From Bdellovibrionota bacterium (GTDB taxonomy: Bacteria > Bdellovibrionota_C > UBA2361 > JAAYZI01): a stretch of DNA of 64,000 nt. Each line of letters opens with the position of its first letter. Position 1 is the stretch's first letter. Of the stretch, positions 30,910-62,595 are shown in pieces. The stretch spans positions 140-64,139 of the forward strand of contig JBMNIF010000001.1 of assembly GCA_050950765.1 (NCBI GenBank), written 5' to 3'. The position numbers and the translations under genes are program-made. The notes beneath the pieces are model-generated. The model had not been told where the DNA came from, ran no database searches, and saw nothing but the letters and a program-made list of their open reading frames with translations.

Positions 30910-31379
30910 AAAAAGCCTTTTAGAAAAGAATTTACACGAGGTGTTTTTTAGTAAATAGATCGAAGCGGTGCAAGCAAAACTTCGAATATATGCAAGTATT
31001 TATCAAAAATACATAAAAATCAAATATTTATCTTGGTGGATCACAATCTTTTTAAATGTTGATTAGGGGGAGTGGTTATTAGAGTAGGGAGCCCTTAATT
31101 ATTTAAAGAAAAATTAAGGCATACGGTTTTTTAAAGGAAGTTGTAAAAATGATCGATGCGGAAAAAGATCTTGCAAAGATAAGGTCTGAAAAGTGCCAGC
31201 TAATCGTAGCAAAACTTCCGTTGCTGCTGATTATCACTTTAACAATGTGTTGCTTGATCGGTGTTTGTGGAAACTTGTTGTATACAGGAAAACTTTCAGA
31301 TCTAAACGCTTCATTTTTTATCACGGATGAGTCATATCACAACGTTGCTACTACCCTTTCCCGTATCAGATACTCCAAG

Positions 31380-31612
31380 TAATTTTTTCTACTACCACTC
31401 TTTTCTGTATCAGATACCCCAGATGTTTTTTTCTCACTAACTTTTTACGACAACAAAGTTGTTATTCAAATTTTTTCCTCACCGACTTTTTATGACAAAA
31501 AAATTGTCATCCCTTTTTTCCTCACCGACTTTTTCTGTATCAGATGCTTTAGGCGTTTTTTTCCACACCACATCTTTTCTGTATCAGATGTTTTTGTGTT
31601 GCTCTCTTTTCT
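31380..31612. repeat. tandem array (5 x ~43-45 bp) of the ACAAC/GTTGT repeat family, in reverse orientation relative to 7125-7345
   Basis: Units such as tttttacgacaacaaagttgttattcaaa are the reverse complement of the 7.2-kb units. Confidence 0.8.
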
Positions 31613-40689: not shown

Positions 40690-40880
40690 AGATTTACGAA
40701 AAGAGGTTTAAAGCGATAAGGGGAGAGGTGAGCACAATCGGACTGTGCATGTTTGGAAAAATGGCTAAAACCTTTTTTACGAAAAGAGGTTTAAAGAAAG
40801 AAGGGGAGAGGTGAGCGCGGTTGAACTGTGCATGTTTGGAAAAATGGTTAAAACCCTTTTACGAAAAGAGGTTTAAAGCC
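40690..40880. repeat. about 2.5 tandem copies of a ~75-bp unit (ttttacgaaaagaggtttaaag...ggggagaggtgagcrc.rtyg.actgtgcatgtttggaaaaatggytaaaacc)
   Basis: Direct repetition visible between two convergent genes. Confidence 0.8.
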
Positions 40881-45346: not shown

Positions 45347-45474
45347 ATAGGTGCTGCTTCAGCTTTTCTCTTAAAACATAAAAATATGAAATAAGATATT
45401 TGCGAATCAAAGGAGAAAGGTGTTTATTTAGCTTAAACGGAAGGTATGCAACAACTTTAATTGGACTAAGCAAA

Positions 45475-46368
45475 ATGAAGTTTGATAAGAATTATATTAA
45501 CTTATTTTTTTCAGCCATCTGTTTTGGTCTCATCATCTTTGGTGGTGATGTTATGAAAAGAAACGGATTCTCGCTTTTTGAGGTCCTAGCTGTTCCAGTT
45601 ATTATTATCTCTCTTTTTACTTTCCCCGTTGCCAGAAAAGATTTTGGAAAAATTTTAAGGTGCAATCCTATTATCTGTATTTTTTATTGTCTCTGTTCGA
45701 CAGTAGCTTGTTTTGGGCAATTTGCCGCTATATTTAGTGGCTTATCAGTTTCTCTTACAGCATTCCTACTTTATACACAGCCTCTTTGGACGATCATGCT
45801 TGGTGTGTTATTTTTTCATGAACGGTTAAAAAAAATAGATGTTTTAATCGTTACTATTATGATTCTTGGATTAGTGTTCTTAATCCAACCGTGGAAGGAT
45901 TTCTCATATTCAATAGCAGGTGTGCTGTGGGGGTTGTCATCTGGTATCTTAATGTCGGTATGGATCATTTTAAGTGCATATTTTTCTAAGAGAGATGTTC
46001 ATCCGATCTCGTTAGTATTTTTTTCCTATTCATGTATGCTTATACCATTATTGATAGTAGTTCTTTTCTTCTCTTCCCAATTGGAGCCCCATCCGGAACT
46101 TTATAAATTTACGTTTTTTACAATGGGTTGGAAAAAAATTACTTGTGTCGTCTTATATGCCATCTTCGCATATGTGCTGGGTAATTATTTATTTTTTAAG
46201 GCATCCAAAACAATCCCGAGCATTCATTTAGGGCTTTTTGTTTTGATGGAGCCCATAGTTGCAACAATGCTTGATGTTATTTTTCTAGGTACATCTTTAA
46301 CCTTAAATGCAATCGTTGGAAGTTCACTTATTTTATTGGGAAATATCTTAATAGTGTTGAAAGAATAG
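45475..46368 (+). CDS. EamA/DMT-family transporter, tandem copy 1
   Basis: Ten hydrophobic segments; start set at MKFDKNY by homology with copy 2. Confidence 0.6.
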   Translation: MKFDKNYINLFFSAICFGLIIFGGDVMKRNGFSLFEVLAVPVIIISLFTFPVARKDFGKILRCNPIICIFYCLCSTVACFGQFAAIFSGLSVSLTAFLLYTQPLWTIMLGVLFFHERLKKIDVLIVTIMILGLVFLIQPWKDFSYSIAGVLWGLSSGILMSVWIILSAYFSKRDVHPISLVFFSYSCMLIPLLIVVLFFSSQLEPHPELYKFTFFTMGWKKITCVVLYAIFAYVLGNYLFFKASKTIPSIHLGLFVLMEPIVATMLDVIFLGTSLTLNAIVGSSLILLGNILIVLKE

Positions 46369-46582
46369 GGCGGTGTAGCAATCTAGTGCTCCTCTGGCAA
46401 TCAGTTGAAATAAAATTTATTGCCAATTATGGAACGAAGCGTTATTACACACAAAAAATAGAATAAAAAATTGTGTCAAAACGTAAAAATATGAAATAAG
46501 ATATCTGCGAATAAAAGGAGAAAGGTGTTTATTTAGTTAGGTAAAACAAAAGCATACAGCAGCTTTAATTGGACTAAGCAAG

Positions 46583-47473
46583 ATGAAGTTTGATAAGAAT
46601 TATATTATTTTAATTTTATCAGCTATCTGTTATGGCCTCATCACTTTTGGTGGCGGTGTTATGAGGCAAAATGGATTTTCACTTTTTGAAGTATTGGCTT
46701 CTGCAATTGTTATCGTGCCTCTTCTTACTTTTTCAGTTGCTAGAAAAGGTTTTAAAAATTTTTTTAAGTGTAATATTTTTATCTGTATTTTATTTTGCCT
46801 CTCTTCAACATTATCTTTTATAGGAGAGCTCGCCCCTCTGTTTTGTGGCTTATCAGTTTCTCTTACAGCATTTTTACTTTATACACAGCCTCTTTGGACG
46901 ATCATGCTTGGAGTGTTGTTTTTTCATGAACGGTTAAAAAAAATAGATGTTTTAATCGTTACTATTATGATTCTTGGATTAGTACTCTTAATCCAACCGT
47001 GGAAGGATTTCTCATATTCAATAATAGGTATATTTTTAGGGCTATTGGGAGGTATTTCACTGTCAGGATGGGTCATTTTAAGCGCGTATTTTTCTAAGAG
47101 AGATGTTCATCCGATGACGCTAGTATTTTTTACATATGCCTGCATGATACCGCTATTATTTATTGTTTTTCTCCCCCCCCCCCAATTAGGATCATATCCA
47201 GAACTCTTTAAGCTTACATTTTTCACAATGGGTTGGAAAAAAAATACCTATGTCATCTTATATGTCATCGTTGCATATGTGCTGGGTAATTATTTATTTT
47301 TTAAGGCATCCAAAACAATCCCGAGTATTCATTTAGGGTTTTTTATTTTGATGGAGCCCATAGTTGCAACAATGCTTGATGTTATTTTTCTAGGTACATC
47401 TTTAACCTTAAATGCAATCGTTGGAAGTTCACTTATTTTATTGGGAAATATCTTAATAGTGCTGAAAGAATAG
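46583..47473 (+). CDS. EamA/DMT-family transporter, tandem copy 2 (carries an in-frame C11 tract)
   Basis: Roughly 75% identical to copy 1 including ~60 bp of upstream sequence; homopolymer C11 at 47173-47183 encoding PPPQ. Confidence 0.6.
   Translation: MKFDKNYIILILSAICYGLITFGGGVMRQNGFSLFEVLASAIVIVPLLTFSVARKGFKNFFKCNIFICILFCLSSTLSFIGELAPLFCGLSVSLTAFLLYTQPLWTIMLGVLFFHERLKKIDVLIVTIMILGLVLLIQPWKDFSYSIIGIFLGLLGGISLSGWVILSAYFSKRDVHPMTLVFFTYACMIPLLFIVFLPPPQLGSYPELFKLTFFTMGWKKNTYVILYVIVAYVLGNYLFFKASKTIPSIHLGFFILMEPIVATMLDVIFLGTSLTLNAIVGSSLILLGNILIVLKE
47173..47183 (+). repeat. homopolymeric C11 tract within the EamA copy-2 coding sequence
   Basis: Counted directly in the sequence (ctcccccccccccaatt). 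Confidence 0.9.
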
Positions 47474-47584: not shown

Positions 47585-48583
47585 ATGAAAAATTTTTTTG
47601 AACATCAAGAAAAAGCCAAAAACTATACGTTCTATCTATTGTTGTGTTGTCTTGTTACAACAATAATCACAGCTCTTACCGTATCTCACGGAGTGTTGGG
47701 TCTTTTTTTATGCCTCGATAATAGTGAAGATATCAATTTATATTCGCAAGATTATCATCAGGCGATAGTTTTAATAAGTTGCATAGTAGTATTTATAATC
47801 TGTTGTGGTTCTCTTTATAAGATCTTTCAACTGTCAAAAGGTGGAAAAGTTGTCGCTAAATTATTGGGTGGTACTTTAATTCCGACAGACACGCAGGATC
47901 CAAAGTTAAAAATGGTTTTAAATGTTGTGGAAGAGATGGCTATCGCTTCCAGTATTCAAACCCCTCCCGTTTATTACCTTCCGAAAGAAGCTGGAATAAA
48001 TGCCTTTGCCGCTGGATTTTCTACTGAAGATGCCATTGTTGCAGTAACTCAAGGTTGTATCGATAATCTATCTCGTGATGAGTTGCAGGGGGTGATCGCA
48101 CACGAGTTTAGCCATATCTTTAATGGTGATATGCGTTTGAATATCCGATTGATGGGGCTTGTTCATGGGTTTTTGCTACTGTATTTAATCGGATGGTCAA
48201 TATTAAGATTTATGCCACGCACAAGAAAGCGTGATAGTGATAGTAAAAGTGGTGCGCTTGTTTTTATTGTAGCTGTTGCGCTGCTTTTAATCGTTCTGGG
48301 CTCTATAAGCGCCTTTTTGGGGAATATAATCAAAGCCTCTATCTCTAGGCAGAGGGAGTTTTTAGCAGATGCGACTGCCGTGCAGTATACCAGAAACCCC
48401 GAAGGGATAGGAGGTGCCTTGAAAAAAATTCAGCTTTTAGCTGAAGGGTCTGAAATTAAAGCGCCTCATGCAAAAGAGGCAAGCCATATGTTCTTCTCGA
48501 ATAATTTTAATGGTCTCTGCAAACGGCTATTAGCTACGCATCCGCCATTAGAGGAGCGTATTCAAAGAATACTTACGCGCTAA
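47585..48583 (+). CDS. HtpX-like M48 family zinc metallopeptidase, paralog 1
   Basis: HEFSHIFNGD (HExxH), TM helices flanking it, C-terminal HPPLEERI; the M48/HtpX layout. Confidence 0.75.
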   Translation: MKNFFEHQEKAKNYTFYLLLCCLVTTIITALTVSHGVLGLFLCLDNSEDINLYSQDYHQAIVLISCIVVFIICCGSLYKIFQLSKGGKVVAKLLGGTLIPTDTQDPKLKMVLNVVEEMAIASSIQTPPVYYLPKEAGINAFAAGFSTEDAIVAVTQGCIDNLSRDELQGVIAHEFSHIFNGDMRLNIRLMGLVHGFLLLYLIGWSILRFMPRTRKRDSDSKSGALVFIVAVALLLIVLGSISAFLGNIIKASISRQREFLADATAVQYTRNPEGIGGALKKIQLLAEGSEIKAPHAKEASHMFFSNNFNGLCKRLLATHPPLEERIQRILTR

Positions 48584-49405: not shown

Positions 49406-49554
49406 GAAAATCTAGTATTAAAATGAGTTAAGATAAATACGCGCAGTTTTCTCTTCCTTATAGCATATAAGTTTGACTTAGATAGTGAGGCATCCTTTTA
49501 TAAAGTTAAGAACATAATTATTGCATTAAAAATACCTAAAATAGTTAAGCAAGT

Positions 49555-50277
49555 ATGTATTATACAATATATGATAAATGGGCAAAGTGCTACGACCCTA
49601 AAAACAAGGAGATGCAAGTTTTAGCTGAGCTTGGGATAGACTTTCATGATAAAAAGGTGCTTGAAGTTGGAGCTGGAACTGGGAGATTTACACAAAGGAT
49701 TTTACCATTTTGTAAAGAAATAGTTTGTGTTGACCCAGATGACGAAGCGCTTTTAGTTTTGAGAGATAATATAAGCGATAAGAGAGTAAGTGTTTTGAAG
49801 GGGACGATTGAAACGGTACCTTTGAAAAAAGAGTATTTTGATTACGCAGTTTATTTATGGTCGATGCATTTAATAGACGAAAAAGAAAAGGTTCTTCAAA
49901 TCTGTTATGATTCTCTAATCAGGGGAGGTTGTGTCGTTATTTTACAAGCGATTTCTGGAGATTATGAAAAAGAAAAAAATAGATTATATAGCAAGTATGA
50001 TATGATGGATGTGTATGACACGACGTGTGAGGATTTGATTAAAGTGCTTGAAAAAGTGTTTGGAAGAGTAACTTGTGACACATTAAATACTTTTTTTTTC
50101 TTTTGATAGCATTGACCAAGTCGTTGAACCCACCGTTTCTTTTGTTGCGGACGAGGACGGAGAGCCACCTAGTGAAATTGCGATAAATTCCTTAAGGGAT
50201 AGACTCTCTTCATACGTAACCCCTGAAGGCAATATAAAAATGTCGGATACCGTGTCGATTTTTATAGCTTATAAGTA
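49555..50277 (+). pseudogene. class I SAM methyltransferase interrupted by a frameshift at a T9 homopolymer (50091-50099)
   Basis: The ORF ends ...TLNTFFFF* at 50106. The +1 frame continues ...SFDSIDQVVEPTVSFVADEDGEPPSEIAINSLRDRLSSYVTPEGNIKMSDTVSIFIAYK* to ~50277. A T10 tract would fuse the two parts. Motif I VLEVGAGTGRFT. Confidence 0.55.
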
Positions 50278-50645
50278 AAAAGCTTTCTTTTTAAATCAGA
50301 TTTCTATCTCGTTTAAAGGACAAATGTTAACCTACAATTTTTTGAAACTTTGGTATAATTAAGTGGGCTTTGCTAGAAAAGCTGGCGATCTGTTTTTGAT
50401 GGCTAAACACTTTTTTGCTTATCAATTTTTAACTAAGACTGTTGAAAATAGGGGAAAGCAACGGAGAATATCTTTCTTAATAATTATGTGCTCTGTTTTA
50501 CCTGTGTGCCTAAAACTGCAAGGTGGTATCAGATTATGACACGTCAGATCTTAAATATCTTGAAGATTTTTATTCTAAATTAAAAATTAAGATGTAATTC
50601 TTTGGAGAAAAGCACGCAGCTCATAGATAATAAATATAAGATTAA

Positions 50646-50730
50646 AAAGGTTAGAGAGCCACACGACAAACACTTGAAACCATCAAGCGAGTCATGGAGT
50701 TGTGAATAACTCTGTGACTCTCTAACCTTT
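50646..50730. other. long nested hairpin (13-bp perfect outer stem aaaggttagagag/ctctctaaccttt plus an inner gagtca/tgactc stem)
   Basis: Inverted repeats read directly; lies just 3' of the minus-strand gene 50771-51511. Confidence 0.5.
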
Positions 50731-50770
50731 ATTCTAAGTTTCTACTGGGAATCCACCACCGTTCGATGGT

Positions 50771-51511
50771 CTACGCGGCGAGAGTAGTGTCAGCGGGAGT
50801 AGTGTTAGTCGGTTCTCGCTCTTCGTCGTCTTGTAGAGGGCAGCAAAAAGCTTCAACGCACAGCGCGAAAAACTCAAGTATCGCAAGCGCTTCTTCCAGT
50901 GTAAGCTTTTTGGCGACAGAAAGAAGGTCTCGCAGGCATTGATTGAGAGATTTGCTGGAATCCTTATTGTGGGACCCTTCACTGAGGGAGTGCATCATTG
51001 CCAGCACAGTGAGGGAGTCCATTATTGCCAGCAACATCATTGGCTCAATCTCCAGCACGTACTTAAGCGTAGCAGGCGAGAATGTAATTTTGGTCAATAG
51101 GTCTCTAAGGCGTTTAAGCATTTCTGGATCGCTTATTGGTACACGAGGCGCTAGTTCGACTTCGTCACCCTTTAAGAGTGTCCCATACCCCCCATTGTTA
51201 TACCGCTCAAGGGGGCACTCTTTGTTACCAGTATATTCGCTAGTTTTAATAGCGAGTATAACGGCCGCCAAGGGAGGAAGTGTGGATGCGCCGTACTGTT
51301 TCACCGTCTGCTTCAGCCACTCCACTACCCGTTTCTGCACCATTGACACTTTTAGTGCCATTGACGCTGCTGTAATCTTATCGACGTTACTTTTCGACAG
51401 CGGAAGCGAAGCGGCACTCTCCAGAGCTTTTAGCCACTTTTCCACCTGTCGTTCTGCGTTTTCCAACGCCCTTTCCAGCAATTCCATTGCTTTTTTTCCT
51501 TGATCTTGCAT
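50771..51511 (-). CDS. hypothetical protein; gene is locally GC-rich
   Basis: 246-aa ORF; GC visibly above the flanks; a long antisense ORF (50943-51503) is also open, consistent with atypical composition. Confidence 0.4.
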   Translation of the reverse strand: MQDQGKKAMELLERALENAERQVEKWLKALESAASLPLSKSNVDKITAASMALKVSMVQKRVVEWLKQTVKQYGASTLPPLAAVILAIKTSEYTGNKECPLERYNNGGYGTLLKGDEVELAPRVPISDPEMLKRLRDLLTKITFSPATLKYVLEIEPMMLLAIMDSLTVLAMMHSLSEGSHNKDSSKSLNQCLRDLLSVAKKLTLEEALAILEFFALCVEAFCCPLQDDEEREPTNTTPADTTLAA

Positions 51512-52032
51512 TGCTGCAATCTCCTTTTACTAGAGGTTAACGAAATAGCTCCCGTGGTATTAACTCCACAGGGGCTGTCATAAGGACAAAAGAGATGCAC
51601 GCAAGCATTAAAAACCTTTTCTAAAAATTACCTTTATTTTTGCCGTGTGCTCTCTCATCACAGAAATATAAATAACTGTCATGCGAGAGCACTTCGATTT
51701 TTCTCTTCTACTTAACCAAATTTTTTTAATCTTCAGAAAGAAGATCTCCAGTAAGATTTTATTCCATTCCCTTTTCTTAGTCTAATTTTAATTCTCCCCA
51801 AAATAACACCCACTTCTAAGCAAGCCCTAAAAACCGTTAATGACCTTAAATTATTATATTAATTTAATTACGAAGTTTTGCTGTTTTAATTGGAGAGGCG
51901 CATTAGAGAGCAGGAAGTACTAACCCCTTTTGCAAGACAACTATCGTTTAGATTGGGCGTTTAGATTGGGGCTTTGGTTGTTAAGAAGTTGTTAAGAGGA
52001 ATTGAAAAAAGAAAATATTTAAAGAGAGAAAA

Positions 52033-52103: not shown

Positions 52104-52676
52104 CTAAAACTGCACCTTTGGTGCTTGATAAACCTCTTTTTCCTCTGCTTGATCTAACTCAAACAGATCTTGTTCCCTAAAGTTAAATAAATTAGCTATA
52201 AGAACATCAGGAAATTGTTGAATGGCGGTGTTGTATATCACAACTTGATTATTGTACTGCCGCCTACTCAAGCTTATTTTATCTTCGGTATCACGCAGCT
52301 CTTCCTGCAATTGTAAAAAAACAGTATTTGCTTTTAAATCGGGATAACTTTCAGAGAGTGCGAAGAGTTGTCTTAACGCTCCGGATAGGGCGTTTTCAGC
52401 CTGAATTTGCTGTCCGATATTTTGAGAATTGGTCACAGTTGTTGCAGCGTTTCTTGCAGCAATAACGGCTTCGAACGTTTCTTTTTCATGAGAGGCGTAA
52501 CCTTTGGCAACTTCAATAACGTTTGGAATTAAATCGTGCCGTCTCTTCAGCTGAACTTTAATTTGCGACCACGATCCCACGCAGAGATTTCGTTTTCTTA
52601 TCAAGCTGTTATAAATCCATATGATATATAACAAAATTATAACGATAGCGATGACTATTCCAGCAGTTAAAGACAT
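52104..52676 (-). CDS. lemA: LemA-family protein, copy 1
   Basis: N-terminal TM plus the conserved QLKRRHDLIPNVIEVAKGYASHEKETFEAV and QLFALSESYPDLKAN blocks. Confidence 0.8.
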   Translation of the reverse strand: MSLTAGIVIAIVIILLYIIWIYNSLIRKRNLCVGSWSQIKVQLKRRHDLIPNVIEVAKGYASHEKETFEAVIAARNAATTVTNSQNIGQQIQAENALSGALRQLFALSESYPDLKANTVFLQLQEELRDTEDKISLSRRQYNNQVVIYNTAIQQFPDVLIANLFNFREQDLFELDQAEEKEVYQAPKVQF

Positions 52677-52714
52677 TAGAATCTCCTTTGCAAAAAAAGG
52701 AATTATAAACCGGT

Positions 52715-52815
52715 AGTATCAACAAGTTAGCGCACGGTTATGCCGATAATACTCCCTTTTATGTTCTATATTATTTAGCAGAGATGCGCCAGCCGCTATT
52801 ATAAGTTACTGTGCG
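52715..52815. repeat. direct repeat T1, left copy (~110 bp); pairs with 58670-58795
   Basis: The shared core aagttagcgcacggtt...atgccgataatac.c.tttatgttctatattatt.agcagagatgc is in the same orientation on the + strand in both copies. Confidence 0.75.
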
Positions 52816-52948
52816 AGTAGATAAAAAACAAACTTCCGAAGGCAAGCCTTGCCAAAGACTGGAACAAAAACCTCACAAAGACTGGAATGAAAAGTCTACA
52901 AAGACTGGAATGAAAACTCCACAAACACTGGAATGAAGATTGCGCTAA
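52816..52948 (+). promoter_or_regulatory. conserved upstream element T2, copy 1 (13-bp palindrome ggcaagccttgcc plus 3-4 x 21-bp subrepeats acaaagactggaatgaaaa)
   Basis: About 90% identical to 54438-54570; lies immediately 5' of the DUF4143 ATPase gene. Confidence 0.6.
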
Positions 52949-53009
52949 TACTTGAAAATACGATATACCTTCTTTAGGCTTCTTCGTTTTGAAAGTGAGA
53001 TGTGGTTTA

Positions 53010-54280
53010 TGAAAAAGTATTTGCCGAGAATTATAGATAAATTATTGCGTGAAAGATTAGAAGCTAAAGGGGCAGTTTTATTAGAAGGTCCTAAATGGTG
53101 CGGAAAGACTACGAGTGCTAAAGAGATAGCGGGTAGTTTTATATCAATGGATCAACCTGAAATGAGTGGGCAGTATCAATCTATGGCTGAACTCTCTCCA
53201 CTAACACTATTAGAAGGCAAGCCTCCGAGATTAATAGACGAGTGGCAGATAGCTCCAAACTTATGGAATGCCGTTAGATATGCTGTCGATGAAAGAGATG
53301 AATTTGGTCAATTCATTTTAACAGGCTCTGCCGTCCCTGCACAAATAGATGAGTCCATGCATACTGGCACGGGGAGAATTTCAAGACTTTATATGAGACC
53401 TATGAGCTTGTATGAGTCTAAGGATTCAAATGGCAAAGTTTCAATCGGAAACTTGTTTGCAAATAAGAAAATATCTACTAAAAGCGATACCGACTTAGAA
53501 GAAATAGCATTCCTAATTTGCAGGGGAGGCTGGCCAAAAGCGGTTGGTTTAGCCGAAAAGCAGGCTCTTTTTCAGGCAATAGATTATTTTGATGCCATCA
53601 TATCGACCGATATAAGTAGGGTAGATTCTGTGAAAAGAGATAAGGAAAAAGCAAAAAGATTTCTAAAATCTTATGCAAGAAATGTCGGAACTAGAGCTAC
53701 CCTAGAGACTATTAGACAAGATGTATTGTCTAATCATGCAGACACTTTCGACTCTGCTACGCTCTATTCATATAGAGATGCACTAACTAAAATCTTTGTT
53801 ATTGAAGATGCGCCAGCTTGGAATCCGAACTTGAGATCAAAGGTTGCTATTAGAACGACGGATGCAAGATATTTTGTTGACCCTTCAATCGCTGCAGCCG
53901 CTTTACAACTTGGTCCAAAAGATCTGTTAAACGATTTAAACACTTTTGGGCTTATCTTTGAAAATTTGTGTTTCCGTGATTTAAGAATATACGCAGACTA
54001 TCTAGATGGCGATGTCTATCAGTATAGAGATAGTAGTGGATTAGAATGCGATGCGGTAATTCACTTAAGAGACGGCTCTTATGGTCTAATTGAAATAAAA
54101 TTAGGAGGCGACACCTTAATTGAAGAAGGAGCAAAAAACTTACTAGACCTAGCCTCAAGGATAGATACAAACAAAATGAAAGAGCCTGCTTTTATGCTTA
54201 TTTTATGCGCCAAAGCTCCCTTTGCATATCAGAGAAAAGACGGGATTTGTGTGGTTCCTATAACTAGTTTAAAACCATAA
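53010..54280 (+). CDS. AAA+ ATPase with a DUF4143 C-terminal domain (COG1373-like), copy 1
   Basis: Walker A GPKWCGKTT and Walker B LIDEWQ; family-typical start MKKYLPRIIDKLL; start chosen at the internal Met at 53010. Confidence 0.7.
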
Positions 54281-54437
54281 ACCCCCCAAAAAAACTCCTC
54301 CTTAGTTTTAAGTGTAAAATTTCAATTATATAACTTATTGAAATAATTTATAAAAAGTTAAAAATCGATCCTTTAAGGTGATTGTAGCCCTTAAAAAACA
54401 TAGCATACGTAAAATAAGAAAAAAGTCTTAGAATTAG

Positions 54438-54570
54438 ATAAAAAATAAACTTCCGAAGGCAAGCCTTGCCAAAGACTGGAACAAAAACCTCACAAATACA
54501 GGAATGAAAAGTTCACAAAGACTGGAATGAAAACTCTACAAAGACTGGAATGAAAGCCCGTCAAACACTG
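54438..54570 (+). promoter_or_regulatory. conserved upstream element T2, copy 2
   Basis: Same palindrome and subrepeats as 52816-52948. Confidence 0.6.
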
Positions 54571-54804
54571 AAAGTTTCTAAAAAATTCTCTAAGCTTAAG
54601 CTTTGAAGCGATATCTCCCTTTTCATCATTTTAGGTTTTTTCTAAATATTTTTATATCAATCCCAGCTAGGTTCCTAACATACTGAAAAGATTAGATTGT
54701 TTTCTTTTGAAATTATAAAAAGACACTATCAAGTATCTTGCTTGCTACTACATTAGGTATATTTTAAGTAAAAATTACATAAACTTAGATAAAAAACTAA
54801 AATC

Positions 54805-54905
54805 TAACGGGATATAAATTAGAAATTTGACCGAATGAGAATTGGAAATTTGACCGATTATAAATTAAAAATTTGACCGAATAGGAATTGAAAATTTGAC
54901 CGATT
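54805..54905 (+). repeat. four iteron-like ~22-bp direct repeats (aaatttgaccgawt...)
   Basis: agaaatttgaccgaatg / gaaatttgaccgatta / aaaatttgaccgaatag / aaaatttgaccgattt, immediately upstream of the second DUF4143 ATPase. Confidence 0.7.
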
Positions 54906-54935
54906 TATGTTGTCTTTCTTTTTGGGAGATAAGTT

Positions 54936-56207
54936 ATGGATAGTCGATACTTGCCAAGATTAGTAGATAAATTAGTTGAGCTTAATTTAAAAGCCTTTGG
55001 GGCAATTTGTATTGAAGGTGCTAAATGGTGCGGGAAAACTTGGACATCAAGGTACCATTCTAAAAGTGCTATATATTTAGGAGACCCGAGCGAGAATTTT
55101 CAAAATAAAGAACTGATGCAATTAGCACCTAAAATAGCTTTAGATGGAGAAACTCCAAGATTAATAGACGAGTGGCAGGAACTCCCTTCTGTTTGGGATA
55201 CGGTAAGGCATGAAGTCGACAAGAGGGGGAAAAAAGGACAATTTATTTTAACAGGTTCATCAACACCAGTGCAAAAAGGTGTACTACATAGTGGAGCTGG
55301 AAGAATTTCTACTATTAGAATGAGACCCATGTCTTTATTTGAATCAAACGATTCATCTGGGCAAGTTTCTTTGCAGTCAATTTTTGATGGAACATTTGAA
55401 GCGGTAGCTCCCCCTAAAATCAATTTGCGGACGCTTATAGAGCTAACCGTTCGAGGTGGTTGGCCAGGTAGTTTAGGTTTGAGTTATGAAGAGTATAGTA
55501 TAATCCCTAAAGAATATATAAGTTCGATAATAAACCATGATATTTATAGATTAGAAGGAATCAATAGAAATTCAAAGAAGATGCATCGCTTATTAAAATC
55601 TCTTGCGAGAAATGAGTCGACAGTGGCTTCAATATCTACTTTAAGAGAGGATGTTAAAGAATATGAGAACGATGCTCTCGATAATGATACGATCTCGGCA
55701 TATTTAACTATATTTGAAAGATTGTTTTTAATCGATAATCAGAAAGCTTTTTCAAGTAATATAAGATCTGCAACTCGTATTAAGCAGGCAGATAAGAGAC
55801 ATTTTGTAGACCCCTCTTTAGCTATCGCCTTATTAGATGCAAGTTATGAAGACTTGTTAAACAATTTAAACGGATTTAGTTTTATGTTTGAGGCTCTTTG
55901 TGAGAGAGATTTAAGGATATATGCAGAAAGTTTAGGAGGTAAATTATATCATTATCAAGATTATAAGAACAGGGAAATCGATGCGATTGTAGAGTTAAAA
56001 GATGGTAGGCTTGGAGCTTTTGAAATTAAATTAGGGGTGGAGGCTGTTGATAATGCAGCAAAGTCGTTAATAGAAATAAGGGATGCTCTAAAAGCCGAAG
56101 GCTCTAACAGGCTAGATGTTTTAGTTGTAATCTCTGGTCTAAGTAATTTTGCCTATCGCAGGGAAGATGGGGTCTATGTCGTGCCGATTACAACGTTAAG
56201 ACCTTAA
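54936..56207 (+). CDS. AAA+ ATPase with a DUF4143 C-terminal domain, copy 2
   Basis: GAKWCGKTW Walker A and LIDEWQ Walker B; collinear with copy 1 but only moderately similar. Confidence 0.7.
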   Translation: MDSRYLPRLVDKLVELNLKAFGAICIEGAKWCGKTWTSRYHSKSAIYLGDPSENFQNKELMQLAPKIALDGETPRLIDEWQELPSVWDTVRHEVDKRGKKGQFILTGSSTPVQKGVLHSGAGRISTIRMRPMSLFESNDSSGQVSLQSIFDGTFEAVAPPKINLRTLIELTVRGGWPGSLGLSYEEYSIIPKEYISSIINHDIYRLEGINRNSKKMHRLLKSLARNESTVASISTLREDVKEYENDALDNDTISAYLTIFERLFLIDNQKAFSSNIRSATRIKQADKRHFVDPSLAIALLDASYEDLLNNLNGFSFMFEALCERDLRIYAESLGGKLYHYQDYKNREIDAIVELKDGRLGAFEIKLGVEAVDNAAKSLIEIRDALKAEGSNRLDVLVVISGLSNFAYRREDGVYVVPITTLRP

Positions 56208-56330
56208 AAGTAAAGTTTTTAATTTTTAAACTTTTTAGGTTATTGTGCTGCTTTAGCGTAAATTGGATATTTGAGGAGCTAAAAAACTACTCTAATAACT
56301 TGAGTGATATTAACTGATGGGGGTGAATAG

Positions 56331-56636
56331 ATGGAAAAATATTTTAGTGCAGAAGATAAAGTCAAGATACTCAAGGAGCATATGCTAGGTGAAGTGCCAG
56401 TATCGAACTTATGTGAAAAATACGGAATAAACGCTGATACATTTTATGAATGGCAAAATTTATTATTTGAAGGAGCCATTCAAAACTTTAAGCATAAAAA
56501 GCGAGGTTCAAAAAAAGCTAAGAAGCAAATTGAACGGATAGATACTTTGGAGAAGAAAATAGCGAAGAAAGATTCCGCGCTAAAGGAGCTGTTGAAACTT
56601 CACATAGATCTAAAGAAAAAGCTCGGAGAGTTCTAA
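56331..56636 (+). mobile_element. IS3-family transposase OrfA (HTH) remnant; no OrfB follows
   Basis: VKILKEHMLGEVPVSNLCEKYGINADTFYEWQ HTH and a leucine-zipper tail typical of IS3/IS911 OrfA; the next ORF is unrelated. Confidence 0.6.
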
Positions 56637-56793
56637 CAGATCATGAAGCTAAGCTGCAAATACGAGATAAGAGGTGATAGACTTTGTAGGTAAATGATAT
56701 AAGAGATCTGGTCAGAAGCAGGCTAAATGTGCTTTGCTTTTATTAAAGTGCAAATATAAACAAAAAGATGTTTTTATAAGAAAGGGAAGATCT

Positions 56794-58482
56794 ATGAAAA
56801 TTGCTTCGGTTAAAATAAAGAATTTTAGAAGCTATAAAGATGAGGTAACCGTTGATTTTGAAAATTTAACGGTATTTGTAGGGAAAAATGATTCTGGAAA
56901 ATCAACGATTTTAGAAGCACTAGATATATTTTTTAACGACGGAAAAGGGCTAGGCGTAACGAAGCTAGATGAAAACGATATAAATGTTGAGAACAAAAAA
57001 GCTGAAGATGGAGATAATGAGATCGAAATAACGGTCGTGTTTAAAGATTTGCCAGAAAAATTAATAATTGATGCCACCGTTGAAACTACTTTAGAAAAAG
57101 AGCATTTGTTAAATGGCGATAAATTAGAAATAATTAAAAGATATAAAAACGCAGGTACTCCGAAAATTTGGATTAGAGCTAATCACCCTACTAATCCTAA
57201 TTGTTCAGACTTATTATTAAAAAAACAAAATGAGTTAAAAAAAATTATTGAAGATAACAATATTGATTGCTCAGATCGGTCAGTTAACTCCGTGATGCGT
57301 GAAGCCATTTGGAAGCATTATGAAGATGATCTTAAATTAGATATTAAAGAAATAGATGTATCTAAGGAAGACGCAAAACAGATATGGGAAAAAATAAATG
57401 CTTGCTTACCAGCTTATTCATTATTTAAATCTGATAGACAAAATACCGATAGCGATTCTGAAGTGCAAGATCCGTTAAAAAATGCGGTAAATATGATTTT
57501 TAAAGAAGATAATATTATAAATAAATTAGATGAGATTGCTAAAGAAGTTAAAGAGCGATTAGAAGATGTATCTAGTAGGACATCAAAAAAGTTAGAAGAT
57601 TTTGATAAAAAAATAGCTGAAGAATTAAAGCCTGTGATACCACCAACAGACAAACTTGCTTGGAGTAGTGTATTTAAATCAGTTTCTATTTTTGGAGATA
57701 ATATTCCAATTAATAAAAGGGGAAGTGGTGTAAAAAGACTTATTTTATTAAGTTTCTTTAGAGCAGAGGCAGAAAGGCAAGCACAAGAAAATAAAAAAAC
57801 AAAAAATGGCGTTATATATGCCATAGAAGAACCTGAAACATCACAACATACAAATAATCAAAAAATTTTAATAGAAGCTTTAAAGAGTTTATCAGACAAA
57901 GAAAATATTCAAGTGATATTAACTACTCATAGTGCTTTTATAGTAAAACAGCTAGATAAACTAGATAGAGAAAAAGCCGCTAAAGATGGTGCAAAACAGC
58001 CAGATTTTTCAAATATAAGGATCGTAAATAAAAAAGAAGACAATAAAGGGAGAATTTCAAAAGTTGAAAAAAGTAGTCTTACATATCCATCATTAAACGA
58101 AGTTAATTTTTTGGCTTATGATGAGACTAGTATTGAATATCATAATGAGCTGTACGGGGCGTTGGAGTCTATGTATAGAGAATATAAGGAAAAGAAGGAA
58201 GATGAGAAAGAAAGAAGTTCCTTTAATAGTTGGTTAAAAAATGAATTAGAAGAGGCAAAGGTAAATGATGTTGAATTGGATAAGGATTACTTTAACGATT
58301 TGTGGAAAAAGCAGGAGAAGACTACTTTACCTACTTATATTAGACATATGATTCATCATCCTGAAAATAAAAAAAATGAAGAGTATACCCCAAATGAATT
58401 AAAAAGGTCGATTGAATTACTAAGAGAAGTTCTTAATATGCAGAAATTAAAAAACGATAAGGAAAGGAGGATCTGTAAATAA
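56794..58482 (+). CDS. stand-alone OLD / ABC-type (AAA_15/AAA_21-like) ATPase with an uncharacterised C-terminal domain
   Basis: N-terminal IKNFRSYKD...VFVGKNDSGKSTILEALD (Walker A), Walker B/D-loop IYAIEEPETSQH, H-loop LTTHSAFIV. The ~185-aa Lys/Glu-rich C-terminus has no Toprim motif that I can recognise. aagggaag RBS before the chosen start. Confidence 0.65.
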   Translation: MKIASVKIKNFRSYKDEVTVDFENLTVFVGKNDSGKSTILEALDIFFNDGKGLGVTKLDENDINVENKKAEDGDNEIEITVVFKDLPEKLIIDATVETTLEKEHLLNGDKLEIIKRYKNAGTPKIWIRANHPTNPNCSDLLLKKQNELKKIIEDNNIDCSDRSVNSVMREAIWKHYEDDLKLDIKEIDVSKEDAKQIWEKINACLPAYSLFKSDRQNTDSDSEVQDPLKNAVNMIFKEDNIINKLDEIAKEVKERLEDVSSRTSKKLEDFDKKIAEELKPVIPPTDKLAWSSVFKSVSIFGDNIPINKRGSGVKRLILLSFFRAEAERQAQENKKTKNGVIYAIEEPETSQHTNNQKILIEALKSLSDKENIQVILTTHSAFIVKQLDKLDREKAAKDGAKQPDFSNIRIVNKKEDNKGRISKVEKSSLTYPSLNEVNFLAYDETSIEYHNELYGALESMYREYKEKKEDEKERSSFNSWLKNELEEAKVNDVELDKDYFNDLWKKQEKTTLPTYIRHMIHHPENKKNEEYTPNELKRSIELLREVLNMQKLKNDKERRICK

Positions 58483-58669
58483 TTTTGTGTATTTTGCTAT
58501 TTCAGGACTGTGTTAACAGCTAAATTATATTTCTAAAGTAGTGATGTAGCTGAATCAAGTATCCACTAACATCAACCCTCCCCTCTAGGTTGATACCAAA
58601 AGCCCCTCTCTTCTTTATAGCTTATCATGTGGGGGCGTATTTGCCCCAGAAAATGGATTATAAGCCGCT

Positions 58670-58795
58670 GGAATCAATAAGTTAGCGCACGGTTTAGTTT
58701 ACGTACTGGTATGCCGATAATACCTCTTTTATGTTCTATATTATTCAGCAGAGATGCCTAGCCGGTATTATAAAACCGCACCTCTTCAGGTTGCT
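58670..58795. repeat. direct repeat T1, right copy
   Basis: See 52715-52815. Confidence 0.75.
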
Positions 58796-58888: not shown

Positions 58889-59479
58889 TTGGTGGACATT
58901 ACTCTGACTTTATGTCTCATTATTGTAATTTTGTTGGTAATTAAAATTTACAACAAACTTATACGTCTTCGGAATATTTGTAGAAATTCATTTTCACAAA
59001 TAGATGTACAACTAAAGAGGCGACACGATTTAATCCCTAATTTAGTTGAAGTTACAAAAGGCTACATGAAATATGAAAGAGAAACGTTCGAAGCCGTTAT
59101 TAAAGCACGGAATGAAGCAACTTCAGCTATAAAAGAGCTAAATTCAAAGCGGTTACTGAGTGCAAATGCTATGGCAGGGGTGGCAGGAGCTGAAAGCAAT
59201 TTAAACAACGCTTTATCGCAGCTGTTTGCGTTAGTAGAGGGGTATCCCGAACTTAAAGCAAATGAGGCGATGCAAAATTTAATGGAGGATCTACGCTCCA
59301 CCGAAAATAGAATCGCTTTTGCCAGACAGGTTTATAATGATGCTGTTATGAATTACAACACTAGGTGCGAACTCTTCCCTCATTTTTTTGTGGCGAAGCT
59401 ATTTAATTTTTCAACGGCTCCTCTCTTTGAATTAGATAATGAAAGTGAACGAGCAGCGATTAATCTTACCTTTTCATAA
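58889..59479 (+). CDS. lemA: LemA-family protein, copy 2
   Basis: Same conserved blocks as copy 1 (QLKRRHDLIPNLVEVTKGY, QLFALVEGYPELKAN); opposite orientation. Confidence 0.8.
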   Translation: MVDITLTLCLIIVILLVIKIYNKLIRLRNICRNSFSQIDVQLKRRHDLIPNLVEVTKGYMKYERETFEAVIKARNEATSAIKELNSKRLLSANAMAGVAGAESNLNNALSQLFALVEGYPELKANEAMQNLMEDLRSTENRIAFARQVYNDAVMNYNTRCELFPHFFVAKLFNFSTAPLFELDNESERAAINLTFS

Positions 59480-59621
59480 ATAATCTTTTTCTGATGATAT
59501 ACTAAAAAATGGATAAGCTTTTAAAATATCAAAAAAGAGTTAAAGGAGAGACTCTCGGCGCACTGCTCTTCTACATTATTGTAATAATAATCACGGCTTT
59601 TTGCTTACCTTTCTTCACCAT

Positions 59622-61466
59622 CCTAAATTCCCGTTTTTTTATAGTCTACACCTTAGTATTTAATATTTTATCGACAAAAATCTTCTGGTCAATTTCTAAT
59701 GCTTCTAAAATATCTTTTTGTTTTTTTGTTAATGGCTGTAGTAGCATGCTCAGATTTTCATTATCTATGCGTCTTATCATTTTAAGCGCTTCTAAAACTC
59801 TCTGAATGGTTTTTTCTACTTTTTTGTTATTATTATTTATAGTTCTTTGTAAGTCTGACCACATAATTAAGCTAAGAAAGGAGACGAAGCTTTTGCCGTC
59901 AGTAGTTTTTTCATTATGTGTTAGCATACGGTCATTATCCAATTCATTTTTTAAATTATCGAAAGCTTTCTCAATAAAGTCTCGTCGTGAATAGATATGA
60001 AGTGCTTCTTGTGGTGTCATTGTTGAGTGGTTACTCAAAAAAGCAAAAACTCCTAGCATAGATAAGATATCGGTAATTTTTTCATGATCCCTTTCAAAAC
60101 TTTCTAACTGCACTTCTTTCTTAGTTTTTATTTTGTAGTATTTAGAGTAGCGACTCATACTCATAGGCTTTTTCATTTCTTTTAGTTCATCTTCTAATCT
60201 GTCAATATGAGAGTAAAGAGTGCTCTCTTCCTCAGATGCACTTTTTGTATTTAAGTAAACGTAGAGAGAAAATTTTTCTCCATTTATCACAATATCTTTT
60301 CTTACCCCATAACAATTTGTCCCAGATATGTGATTCCTAGAAGAGCGAAGAGTAACAGATGCTTCCCTCATAGTATCGTTGTAATTTTTCTGAGATTTAG
60401 GAACAGCTACGAGAAATTCTATTTGCTCTTTTTTTATATATTCTAAATTTTCTTTTGTAATAAAACCTCTATCCAGAACATAAAATATATCATCAATACC
60501 TAAGCTTTTAGAGTATTCCATCATTGTTGTAAGAAAAACTTTATCAACAACACTTCCACTGTAAAGAAAAAAACTTATTGGTAAATTGCTGTCGGTAGCG
60601 TATAAAAGTCCGACATTTAGTTGTGGTAAATATTCTTTGTCTCTATTGTATCCATTCTCGGCAAGTGGCAAGTCTGCATAAGTAGAAAGGCTCGTAACAT
60701 CATAAGCTACAGTCTCATTGTTTTTCATAGCATGGTTTTTCCACACAGAAAAAAACTTCATTTGATCTTGTTTGGTAATCGATGAAAAAAGCTCACTTGT
60801 CTTTTGCGAGGATAGAGATATGTTTTTAGGGGTAAGAGTATTTTGCAAAAAATTATCTATATTCATCATTACATTGCCTTCGCAAGCCATGTATAACGCA
60901 GTATAAAAGATATCTTCGTATTTATCGGGAAAGATTGTTTTTAAGCATTTTAATAACCCTATAGCCTCAGCTCTCATTTTTAATGCGACTACGTGACCTG
61001 CGTCCCAAACAAAGCGAGAAGAAGCTAGATCAATAACGTCAGATGGCATTGGATAATATTTTCTAAAGTTCTCATTAGGAATCATTCTTCCTTGTCTATC
61101 AGGGTCTATCTTTCCCACAATCACTTCATCACAAGTAGGTGTGCCGTTCTTATTACGACGATGACCAAGTACGTGATACACATACTTTACGTTCCCTTTG
61201 TTATCTTTTTTATACGAAATCTTTTTTTCTGGAATTGGAATTGAAATATTTATTAAAGCCATTTTGCCTCCTATTTTTTACTGTCTCGTAGACTACGGAA
61301 GTATAGTCTACAAAGCAAAAGATGTCAATAGTTTTTTTAAAAAAATTAAAAAAACTTTTATAAAAAAACTTAATTAAATAAGTATGTTGGAGGAAATATA
61401 ATATTAGAAAATCTAAATATGAAATTAAATTATTGATATGGACTACATAAAAAACGGGAATTTAGG
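59622..61466 (-). mobile_element. insertion sequence (1845 bp) with 18-bp terminal inverted repeats (cctaaattcccgtttttt) and a 7-bp target-site duplication TCACCAT
   Basis: The left IR at 59622-59639 is the exact reverse complement of 61449-61466; tcaccat at 59615-59621 and 61467-61473; a single transposase ORF inside. Confidence 0.8.
59646..61262 (-). CDS. DDE transposase (IS4-superfamily-like, possibly IS1634-type)
   Basis: 538-aa ORF filling the IS; family assigned from general resemblance only. Confidence 0.55.
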   Translation of the reverse strand: MALINISIPIPEKKISYKKDNKGNVKYVYHVLGHRRNKNGTPTCDEVIVGKIDPDRQGRMIPNENFRKYYPMPSDVIDLASSRFVWDAGHVVALKMRAEAIGLLKCLKTIFPDKYEDIFYTALYMACEGNVMMNIDNFLQNTLTPKNISLSSQKTSELFSSITKQDQMKFFSVWKNHAMKNNETVAYDVTSLSTYADLPLAENGYNRDKEYLPQLNVGLLYATDSNLPISFFLYSGSVVDKVFLTTMMEYSKSLGIDDIFYVLDRGFITKENLEYIKKEQIEFLVAVPKSQKNYNDTMREASVTLRSSRNHISGTNCYGVRKDIVINGEKFSLYVYLNTKSASEEESTLYSHIDRLEDELKEMKKPMSMSRYSKYYKIKTKKEVQLESFERDHEKITDILSMLGVFAFLSNHSTMTPQEALHIYSRRDFIEKAFDNLKNELDNDRMLTHNEKTTDGKSFVSFLSLIMWSDLQRTINNNNKKVEKTIQRVLEALKMIRRIDNENLSMLLQPLTKKQKDILEALEIDQKIFVDKILNTKV

Positions 61467-62595
61467 TCACCATATTCCCCTGCATACAAATCTATAATGA
61501 GGTGTACCTACGGAATAGCGAAGCTAGTACTGACATACTTATGGACTATTTCGATCCAGTAATGGCTCCATTAAGTTGGATAGTGGCATTATTAATCTGC
61601 GGCAGCACCCTTTATAAAATCTTTCAATTATCAAAAGGCGAAAACGTTGCTAAATTATTAGGTGGCGTTTTAATTCCGACAGATACGCAGGAACCGAAGT
61701 TTAAAATGATCTTGAATGTTGTAGAAGAGATCTCCGTTGTTTCAGGTATTAAGCCACTTCCTGTTTATTACCTTCCAGAAGAAAAGGGGATAAATACATT
61801 TTCTGCCGGATCCTCTACTGAAAATGGTGTCATTACAGTAACGCAAGGGTGTATCGATAATCTATCTCGTGATGAGTTACAGGGGGTGATCGCACATGAA
61901 TTTTGCCATATCTTTAATGGTGATATGCGCTTAAATGTTCTGTTGATAGGGCTTATTTATGGACTTTCCCTGCCAATGTCTATGGGAAAGGGGATATTTG
62001 AATTTCTAAAGAATTTTAATAAGCGTATTAACAAAAAAGAAAACATAGTGATTACTTTAATTATAATCGGTATCACAGGTGGCATCTTAGGGAGTACGTT
62101 GGCGTTATTCTTTTGTGGTGCTATGAGCTACTTTTGCAGTATGCAAGCTAAAGCTTCTGTCACTAGGCATAAGGAGTTTTTAGCAGATGCTACCGCTGTG
62201 CAGTATACCAGAAACCCTGAAGGGATAGGGGGTGCCTTAAGAAAAATTATGGTTCTACCTGAAGGATCTGAAATTAAATCGCCTCATGTAAAAGAGATAA
62301 ACCACATGCTCTTTGCAAACTATTCTAACGACCCTCACAAAGGGGATAGGGATTTAGCTACGCATCCACCATTAGAAGAACGGATTAAAAGAATATTTGA
62401 GGTAGAGTATTAAAACCTAAGATGATCTTAGTGTGAGAGAAGTGGTGTTGTTTGGGAGTAGATTAGGTGTTTTTAATATTGCAGACACCTTTTTGTGGCT
62501 GCTATCAAAGTGCGGAATAAAGTAACTTCAACCATAAAGGAACTAATTCAGCGCTTACTCTTTGATAGATAATTTTCTTCGATGATACACGTGAG

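Follow-up and report, generated by a model that had tools for sequence, protein, structure and literature searches.

Layout of the locus

The subject of this analysis is a segment of about 6 kb, here called the islet, within a window of 64,000 nucleotides from a Bdellovibrionota bacterium (contig JBMNIF010000001.1). The islet sits between two divergently transcribed lemA paralogs and contains genes for two DUF4143 AAA+ ATPases, a helix-turn-helix (HTH) gene and an AAA_15 ATPase gene (Table 1). Each DUF4143 gene is preceded by an array of 23-bp direct repeats, and another repeat, T1, stands at either edge of the islet. The 23-bp arrays, which are apparently undescribed, recur in the surveyed relatives across phyla, and are a conserved, oriented and position-specifically constrained part of the DUF4143 cassette. 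No description of them was found in the literature on DUF4143, COG1373 and PDC-S01, in a limited search that is no proof of novelty.

An earlier note on this DNA had read the segment as a candidate defence or mobile island bounded by att-like repeats. The gene content that it listed (two DUF4143 ATPases, an orphan IS3 OrfA-like gene and an OLD/ABC-like ATPase) is confirmed by the map of open reading frames (ORFs) and by Pfam, NCBIfam and PADLOC, and the flanking lemA genes do point in opposite directions, as it had stated. The G+C content, which the note had proposed to compare with the surroundings, is indeed lower in the islet (33.9%, versus 39.1% for the window), and lowest in the AAA_15 gene (29.7%). 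Both junctions of the islet are present in independent assemblies (a JGI contig, and the Logan contigs L088 and L002), thus the arrangement is not an assembly artefact.

Table 1. Coordinates of the islet genes, repeats and flanks in the 64-kb window (TRF, Tandem Repeats Finder).
Feature	Position	Strand	Description
lemA-L	52104-52676	-	Left flank, transcribed away from the islet; Pfam LemA 3e-56
T1L	52692-52806	+	Left copy of the ~115-bp direct repeat; 15 nt from the lemA-L start codon
Block A	52818-52937	+	35-nt leader and four 23-bp units (CAAAGACTGGAATGAAAACnnCA); array of DUF4143-1; TRF period 23, 3.7 copies
DUF4143-1	53009-54280	+	PADLOC PDC-S01 1e-59; AAA+ ATPase, winged helix, PD-(D/E)xK; alternative ATG 53000
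Block A'	54435-54554	+	Second 120-nt leader and array, 94% identical to block A
Array B	54813-54914	+	23-bp units, four to five in number (AAATTTGACCGAATnnGAATTGn); array end ~30 nt ahead of DUF4143-2; TRF period 23, 3.8 copies
DUF4143-2	54936-56207	+	PDC-S01 paralogue, PDLC04790 3e-61, Pfam; 41% identical to DUF4143-1
HTH ORF, 101 aa	56331-56636	+	HTH_Tnp_1 1e-6; orphan, IS3 OrfA-like
AAA_15 ATPase	56794-58482	+	AAA_15 6e-86; of the OLD/AriA/GajA kind, stand-alone
Right junction	58570-58645		Homology among strains with different cargo resumes: partial at ~58570, full at 58608
T1R	58646-58778	+	Right copy, with a 16-nt insertion; 113 nt upstream of lemA-R
lemA-R	58892-59479	+	Right flank; Pfam LemA 4e-53; start codon as called by JGI/NCBI

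23-bp arrays upstream of DUF4143 genes

By their profile matches, both DUF4143 genes can be assigned to the PDC-S01/COG1373 family (AAA_14 plus DUF4143): the two proteins match the model PDLC04790 over positions 8-417 of 422, and PF13173 and PF13635 score above their gathering thresholds. DUF4143 (COG1373) has been placed in the PD-(D/E)XK superfamily, with function unknown (PMC3424549), and PDC-S01 has been reported as the fourth most common prokaryotic defence candidate, with ~39,000 occurrences in one survey. Array A spans 52851-52942, ahead of DUF4143-1, with position weight matrix (PWM) matches at 52851, 52874, 52897 and 52920. The unit of array B differs from that of array A, and an orthologous array precedes the orthologous DUF4143-2 gene (88% identical in L101) in the Myxococcota-labelled contigs L101 and L214. 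Block A', whose array covers 54468-54570, lies downstream of DUF4143-1 with no gene directly behind it, and is therefore an orphan array. The repeat finder detected no inverted repeats flanking the 23-bp arrays of the window.

The association with the gene family was surveyed in 80 metagenome loci holding relatives of DUF4143-1 at 56-87% identity, together with 33 loci from IMG/VR. TRF returned 66 period-23 rows in ~35 kb of upstream windows, as against 5 in the remaining ~477 kb, and some of these five (in L101 and L174, for example) lie just 3' of the matched gene, at a place where another DUF4143 paralogue stands, or may stand, in tandem. When lags of 12-40 were compared without any threshold in the 220 nt before the ATG, the dominant lag was exactly 23 nt in 90 of 93 non-redundant loci, versus 1.8 of 90 control regions; the loci missed by TRF have mostly two to four degenerate units at 23-nt spacing. 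The spacing extends to more distant members, as units are also 23 nt apart in three relatives at 36-37% protein identity, and among the four period-23 rows found in 1.12 Mb of unrelated genomic loci, two represent the array before a Collinsella DUF4143 gene (42% identity). Of 63 arrays, 62 are oriented alike with respect to their gene. The consensus unit reads GCCAA(A/C)-N5-6-(C/G)GAA followed by an A-rich stretch, and the arrays end 20-96 nt before the ATG. In 51% of loci, versus 17% of shuffles, the last unit is overlapped or followed by a sigma70-like promoter (at least 9/12), whose -10 element ends ~30 nt before the ATG.

Conservation along the unit, analysed in 48 non-redundant arrays, is strongly uneven. 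Whether units of one array or of different arrays are compared, positions 3-5 and 13-14 are conserved; at positions 6-12 identities are 0.79-0.97 within arrays and 0.25-0.56 between them, and the spacer, positions 15-23, reaches just 0.49-0.69 even within arrays. Since slippage or gene conversion would homogenise all positions alike, this pattern argues for selection on a site of ~14 bp, its centre specific to the locus, next to a spacer that is free. Tandem paralogues carry their own distinct arrays, two in the window and four in L101/L214.

It could be that the arrays are neutral or phase-variation minisatellites arising by slippage, or A-tract bending or UP-like promoter elements, rather than sites for the ATPase. 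Their copy number varies from 2 to 10 between loci, their units are A-rich, and the 23-nt minisatellite BrickBuilt of Porphyromonas gingivalis has promoter activity and no linked ATPase (PMC4596501). We consider this unlikely, however, given the exact period in 90 of 93 loci across phyla, which persists at 36% protein identity, the fixed orientation, the strong conservation of positions 1-14 within arrays alongside a locus-specific centre and a drifting spacer, and the co-inheritance of array and ORF as one block (see below).

Two further observations concern repeats of other periods. At 8140-8300 of L101/L214, three repeats stand ahead of the fourth tandem AAA_14-DUF4143 paralogue with a period of ~32 nt (GAATAATTnnnnnATAATTGCAAAAAnCATAG) instead of 23, and more distant DUF4143 subfamilies may use a different repeat spacing. 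This paralogue is truncated in L214 and an alignment containing it was too poor for use; a search of viral contigs with paralogues 3 and 4 of L214 gave no matches. The window itself contains four other intergenic minisatellites, at 2418-2695, 7151-7342, 31348-31534 and 40693-40879, with periods of 61/123, 43, 44-45 and 83 nt; these lie beside genes for an NPCBM-domain protein, holin-like/rsgA, DUF2760/folKP and an outer-membrane efflux protein, respectively. Standing next to unrelated genes, they were rejected as kin of the 23-bp arrays.

Predicted structure of the DUF4143 protein

An AlphaFold2 model built on an alignment of 133 sequences (representatives of 50% clusters) has a mean predicted local distance difference test (pLDDT) score of 96.4 and a predicted template modelling (pTM) score of 0.94; an earlier model, from 62 close homologues, reached a pLDDT of 52.8 and was not used. 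The predicted protein has an AAA+ domain at about residues 1-180, with Walker A (G27/G32/K33) and Walker B (D77-E78), a helical and winged-helix domain at about 183-300, and a PD-(D/E)xK domain at 310-420 (D348, E362-x-K364). G27, G32 and K33 are invariant, at least 90% of the 133 aligned sequences keep D77-E78 and D348, and E362-x-K364, which is the consensus of the broad alignment, does not vary among close relatives. The Walker and PD-(D/E)xK nuclease motifs are thus intact. The protein models as an Orc1/Cdc6- or STAND-like AAA+ ATPase with a winged helix, fused to a PD-(D/E)xK nuclease.

Limits and mobility of the cassettes

Homologues of DUF4143-1 that are 84-90% identical occur in metagenome-assembled genomes (MAGs) labelled Clostridia, Myxococcota, Christensenellales and Thermoguttaceae, and others at 76-77% identity in Levyella and Finegoldia. 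The neighbouring lemA-L is, by contrast, isolated: it is identical or 97-98% identical in conspecific contigs, while its closest non-self homologue among 5.8 billion protein clusters has ~62% identity, and a search of species-representative genomes with LemA-L gave a top identity of 58%, with matches from scattered phyla. It is this contrast between close relatives in other phyla and an isolated flank that marks DUF4143-1 as horizontally mobile.

The limits of what moves can be seen by aligning the window to L217 and L214/L101, where nucleotide homology of 81-83% runs from 52875, in the first or second array unit, to the stop codon at 54280, with no similarity beyond this span. The contexts are an acetyltransferase/MarR/NUDIX neighbourhood in L217, which is labelled Clostridia, and PrmA in L214/L101; neither has T1 or lemA. 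For the DUF4143-2 cassette, the span of homology is 54823-56214. As judged from these alignments, the inherited unit is an array of three to five 23-bp direct repeats, a sigma70-like promoter and the ORF, together ~1.4 kb.

Strain variation and the remaining cargo

Conspecific strains, recovered from short metagenome contigs, have flanks of the variable locus that are 97-99% identical. On the right side, contigs L089, L091 and L093, in which lemA-R is exact or near-exact (98-99% identical), match the window only rightward of 58608, with patchy similarity from ~58570. Upstream of this junction, L089 (flank 98% identical) has the C-terminus of a different AT-rich gene, with a match to PADLOC PDC-S46 at 2e-51, in the place that is taken up, in the window, by the AAA_15 gene end and a 125-nt spacer. 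On the left side, every variant retains lemA-L, T1L and the first array. L099 lacks DUF4143-1, and has a single 120-nt block followed directly by the equivalent of 54555-54961; on its left this block is flanked as A is, and on its right as A' is. Such an arrangement fits either deletion by recombination between A and A' or a state preceding insertion. The observed breakpoints of variation therefore lie 40-75 nt left of T1R and internally, between the two 120-nt array blocks, and neither is at a T1 edge.

Candidate defence genes are clustered here, and content differs between strains at one locus with conserved flanks, as in defence islands and variable hotspots. The content of the islet differs between conspecific strains, its genes are defence candidates, and at least the DUF4143 genes are mobile across phyla; on sequence evidence the islet is a small variable hotspot of candidate defence genes. 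Of the island proposed in the earlier note, strain-variable cargo of defence-candidate genes stands, while the att-like role given to T1 is unsupported. The defence-profile search suggested there was also productive, with PADLOC returning PDC-S01 twice, the AriA/Old/GajA-like ATPase, and PDC-S46 in L089.

The AAA_15 ATPase matches the PADLOC model of AriA (PDLC02979, 2e-73) over residues 21-404 and that of Old at 2e-29, with the Old and GajA models covering only its ATPase part. For its C-terminal ~180 aa (182), Pfam gives nothing at E<=10 and a Toprim domain cannot be recognised, and no gene for a partner nuclease or helicase was found in the islet, its neighbours being the HTH ORF and lemA-R. 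Identification as PARIS was rejected, since the AriA-type ATPase is present while an adjacent or fused AriB (DUF4435/Toprim) is absent; a Gabija or OLD nuclease was likewise rejected, as there is neither a Toprim domain nor a GajB helicase gene in the islet. Full-length homologues of ~520 aa, at 52-57% identity, occur in Gardnerella and Dialister, and the protein belongs to a stand-alone family of ~520 aa with members in these genera and others. By its annotated gene content, the islet holds no complete validated defence system, with AriB missing for PARIS and GajB for Gabija.

The HTH ORF matches the IS3 transposase model NF033516 (transpos_IS3) over positions 1-76 of 369, at 2.6e-7 and 30 bits against a cut-off of 160. 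It was rejected as an IS3 element: there is an OrfA-like HTH only, with no OrfB after it, and the next gene is that of the AAA_15 ATPase.

A separate observation concerns a 530-aa protein, P0399, encoded in another Bdellovibrionota MAG. It has 81% identity with the AAA_15 ATPase, across 81% of its length, and is annotated with the methyltransferase domains PF13649 and PF08241. It is a fusion or a merged gene call; a methyltransferase gene is also present in the indel that neighbours the islet in the window (see below).

The flanking repeat T1

The two imperfect repeats in the same orientation that the earlier note had placed around the segment are real, with their limits shifted to those of Table 1. 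Both copies are seen with the repeat finder and in a MAFFT alignment. By within-window blastn they agree at 97 of 126 columns (E = 4e-24), or ~88% once the 16-nt insertion of T1R is disregarded, and the longest exact runs common to both copies are 14-20 nt. A blastn search of the 64-kb window found no third copy, and for a 49-nt degenerate core of T1, shuffles give an expectation of 0 chance occurrences. As the adjoining lemA paralogs encode proteins of 51% identity and the DUF4143 proteins are 41% identical, T1 must be either much younger than these genes or more constrained.

T1L carries a promoter-like TTAGCA-16-TATTAT at its right end on the plus strand (52775-52802) and, read off the sequence, a TATAAT on the minus strand ~25 nt ahead of the lemA-L ATG; both features are kept in T1R, and T1R is itself 98-99% conserved in strains L089, L091, L093 and L095. 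The earlier note had argued that T1 cannot be a conserved lemA promoter, as it would be inverted relative to one of the two genes. This logic is correct for a one-directional promoter, and T1 may instead be a bidirectional intergenic or promoter segment. A coding role for T1 was rejected because its short ORFs lose frame between the copies through a 1-nt indel, and T1R was rejected as the decayed leader of a DUF4143 cassette because a scan near it with the array-unit PWM found no remnants. Immediately left of T1R, within the stretch conserved among strains with different cargo, there is a GGGGC-N6-GCCCC hairpin (58632-58647), which has no U-run on either strand and so is not a canonical terminator.

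Being a conserved non-coding sequence upstream of genes, T1 could be thought a small structured RNA or riboswitch-like leader that is present twice. This is close to excluded: its fold energies are like those of shuffles on both strands (z = +0.4 to +1.2; +1.0 to +1.2 for T1L), Rfam gives nothing at the gathering threshold or even at E<=1, its copies are opposite in orientation relative to their respective lemA genes, and the frame of its short ORFs is not conserved.

The proposal that T1L and T1R are attL and attR of an island that entered through site-specific recombination, its integrase having since been lost or working in trans and the 6 kb forming one mobile unit, has several observations in its favour. 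The copies are in direct orientation and enclose accessory genes, the right edge of strain variation falls within 40-75 nt of T1R, the islet has a G+C content below that of its flanks, and an IS3-OrfA-like remnant lies inside it. Nevertheless, we give this proposal little credence. The islet has no recombinase: as the earlier note had observed, neither an integrase nor a recombinase is found among all ORFs of at least 60 aa at 52.7-58.8 kb, and the sole transposase in the vicinity is that of a DDE insertion sequence (IS) outside the islet, at 59646-61262. The cores of att sites are normally identical, whereas the T1 copies differ by ~12% and a 16-nt indel. The empty site that the note had suggested looking for, with a single T1 between adjacent lemA-L and lemA-R, was absent from ~20 conspecific contigs (including L002-L006 and L088-L100). 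Moreover, the cargo varies piecewise, the breakpoints lying inside the islet, one at its array blocks and one to the left of T1R, and in another genome the DUF4143-1/-2 pair occurs where T1 and lemA are both absent. Exact T1 patterns have 0 matches in viral contigs and 0 in metagenome contigs, although the latter collection is evidently without the source samples and says little on dispersal.

It is similarly improbable that T1 is a dispersed, genome-specific repeat, of the REP (repetitive extragenic palindrome) or MITE (miniature inverted-repeat transposable element) kind or a mobile promoter, that flanks the islet by coincidence. The genome is rich in intergenic repeats, both strands of T1 have promoter-like hexamers, and the contig, which is at least 544 kb long, was searched for T1 over 64 kb. 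On the other hand, these 64 kb contain two copies only, T1 has neither terminal inverted repeats nor a stable fold, other collections are without T1 matches, and both copies adjoin lemA paralogs.

Surroundings of the islet

The earlier note had described the flanks as inverted LemA-HtpX modules. This holds for the right side, where lemA-R is followed by an IS-interrupted M48/HtpX gene and then by a second M48 gene (Pfam M48, DDE_Tnp_1). The left side does not conform, as the M48 gene there (47585-48583, plus strand) is convergent with lemA-L and separated from it, and lemA-L has no M48 gene downstream. The interrupting IS carries DDE_Tnp_1 and splits M48/HtpX (59509-62413); its transposase, of 538 aa, is encoded on the minus strand at 59646-61262, the M48/HtpX pieces on its two sides are an N-terminal fragment of 38 aa and a remainder of 303 aa, and the JGI contig stops within the IS.

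Pairs of lemA genes were also considered as a general insertion hotspot. This was ruled out, since just 1 of 80 unrelated LemA loci has two lemA matches within 10 kb, and at that locus the genes are adjacent on the same strand and possibly one gene split by binning.

A second indel lies beside the islet. The conspecific strains L096 and L098 lack a 2.35-kb segment, 49438-51789, and have a flavin mononucleotide (FMN) reductase gene directly after lemA-L. The segment contains an S-adenosylmethionine (SAM) methyltransferase gene at 49555-50106 and an ORF of 246 aa that has no match in Pfam, NCBIfam or PADLOC and an unusually high G+C content (49%, and 51% at third codon positions). Further left, at 45373-47473, two adjacent EamA transporter genes with 84% DNA identity over ~1 kb represent a recent tandem duplication.

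Interpretation

We propose that the islet is a local hotspot of independently acquired cassettes, that T1 is duplicated lemA intergenic DNA, and that the arrays are cognate binding sites, a reading to which as a whole we assign a probability of about 0.6. The ~115-bp T1 would be a piece of lemA intergenic or promoter DNA that now stands on either side of the cargo. An ancestral head-to-head arrangement, lemA-L <- T1 -> lemA-R, would have been hit by a Campbell-type event or by duplication plus insertion, after which T1L would have kept the leftward promoter for lemA-L, and T1R the rightward promoter for lemA-R. The DUF4143 genes travel as compact cassettes of array, promoter and ORF, and recombination between homologous arrays, such as A and A', could add or remove a cassette.

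From the organization of the units we infer that the arrays are cognate binding sites of the protein encoded behind them. Binding of each DUF4143 protein to its own array would be cooperative, as at an iteron or an origin recognition box (ORB) element, with units made up of a CAA...GAA frame common to the family, a centre specific to the locus and a free, A-rich spacer of 9 bp. As the last unit overlaps or abuts the -35 element, such binding would autoregulate a potentially toxic ATPase-nuclease.

Several points weigh against this proposal. The divergence of unit cores along with their proteins is by shared descent, so their covariation does not independently prove cognate recognition. In STAND proteins, the winged-helix domain often makes intramolecular contacts rather than binding DNA. 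A host factor may bind the arrays, or the arrays may have a role at the RNA level if they are transcribed, for example from the rightward promoter-like site of T1L. The ancestral head-to-head arrangement of the lemA genes was not observed in the ~20 conspecific contigs, and PDC-S01 is an unvalidated phage defence candidate (PMC12988326).

The arrays may also have a role in cassette mobility or self-recognition. In a stronger form of this idea, PDC-S01 genes would be self-contained iteron-initiator-nuclease cassettes, in which the nuclease oligomerises on its private array, and the array, more than an operator, is the cis element by which the cassette is defined. The nuclease would dock or be licensed there and so be kept inactive on self DNA, or the array would be the recombination substrate for gain and loss of cassettes, or both. 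This would explain the sharp limits of homology, from array to stop codon, and the duplication of A and A' around DUF4143-1, and we put it forward tentatively, as a possible but unlikely extension.

Taken alone, the islet is an ordinary small patch of accessory and defence-candidate genes, with a flanking repeat of putative role. It is the conserved, oriented 23-bp array, together with a confident structural model of the protein, that gives a testable handle on the extremely abundant, uncharacterised AAA_14-DUF4143 (PDC-S01) family. The array is also a sequence signature for annotating DUF4143 cassettes, and explains assembly breaks at such loci.

Comparison with known systems

Like defence islands, the locus has strain-variable genes of defence type at one position between conserved flanks, along with IS scars and a lower G+C content. 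It differs from them in its small size (6 kb), in having members that are candidates or orphan components, and in being flanked by old lemA paralogs and by a duplicated 115-bp segment. Identification of the islet as a PARIS, Gabija, OLD or IS3 unit fails for want of the defining partners. The ABC-type ATPase domain of the AAA_15 protein does match the AriA, GajA and Old models, but PARIS, Gabija and class 1 OLD systems are set apart from it by their AriB/DUF4435, their GajB helicase and a Toprim domain that is not recognisable in its C-terminal 180 aa.

The DUF4143 proteins match the hidden Markov model of PDC-S01 over its full length, have its domain architecture, and keep the Walker and PD-(D/E)xK motifs intact. 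At the protein level there is no difference, and what is added here is the 23-bp upstream array and the sharp limits of the cassette, neither of which was met with in the literature searched. In comparison with STAND/Avs-type proteins and the archaeal Arch_ATPase family (SSO1545, PABY2304), the DUF4143 protein lacks a sensor domain of the repeat type, has its nuclease at the C-terminus and is only 423 aa long. We know of no dedicated cis array in STAND defence proteins.

The one published 23-nt minisatellite that we found in the literature searched is BrickBuilt. It is likewise intergenic, with an exact 23-nt period, units with a conserved and a variable half, copy number that varies among strains, and promoter activity (PMC4596501). 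However, it is a dispersed MITE that has a leader, a tail and terminal inverted repeats and does not adjoin ATPase genes; the comparison is by description, as the unit sequence is not printed in that report (PMC4596501).

The closest likeness in anatomy is to iteron initiators (P1, F, pPS10 RepA) and to archaeal orc1/cdc6 genes with their ORB elements. In these systems, as here, the gene has immediately upstream of it a tandem series of direct repeats, each about two helical turns long, that overlaps the promoter, the gene product has a winged helix (here with an AAA+ domain, Orc1/Cdc6-like), and each paralogue has its own repeat sequence. The DUF4143 genes differ in being chromosomal, in occurring as tandem paralogues and in carrying a PD-(D/E)xK nuclease, and ORB elements are usually inverted around a DNA unwinding element (DUE), while the repeats of DUF4143 arrays are strictly direct. 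Occurrence as chromosomal tandem paralogues argues against the arrays functioning as origins. On this anatomical likeness, the array-plus-gene module would work like an iteron/initiator or ORB/Orc1 pair, with the encoded protein as the presumed ligand of its own array.

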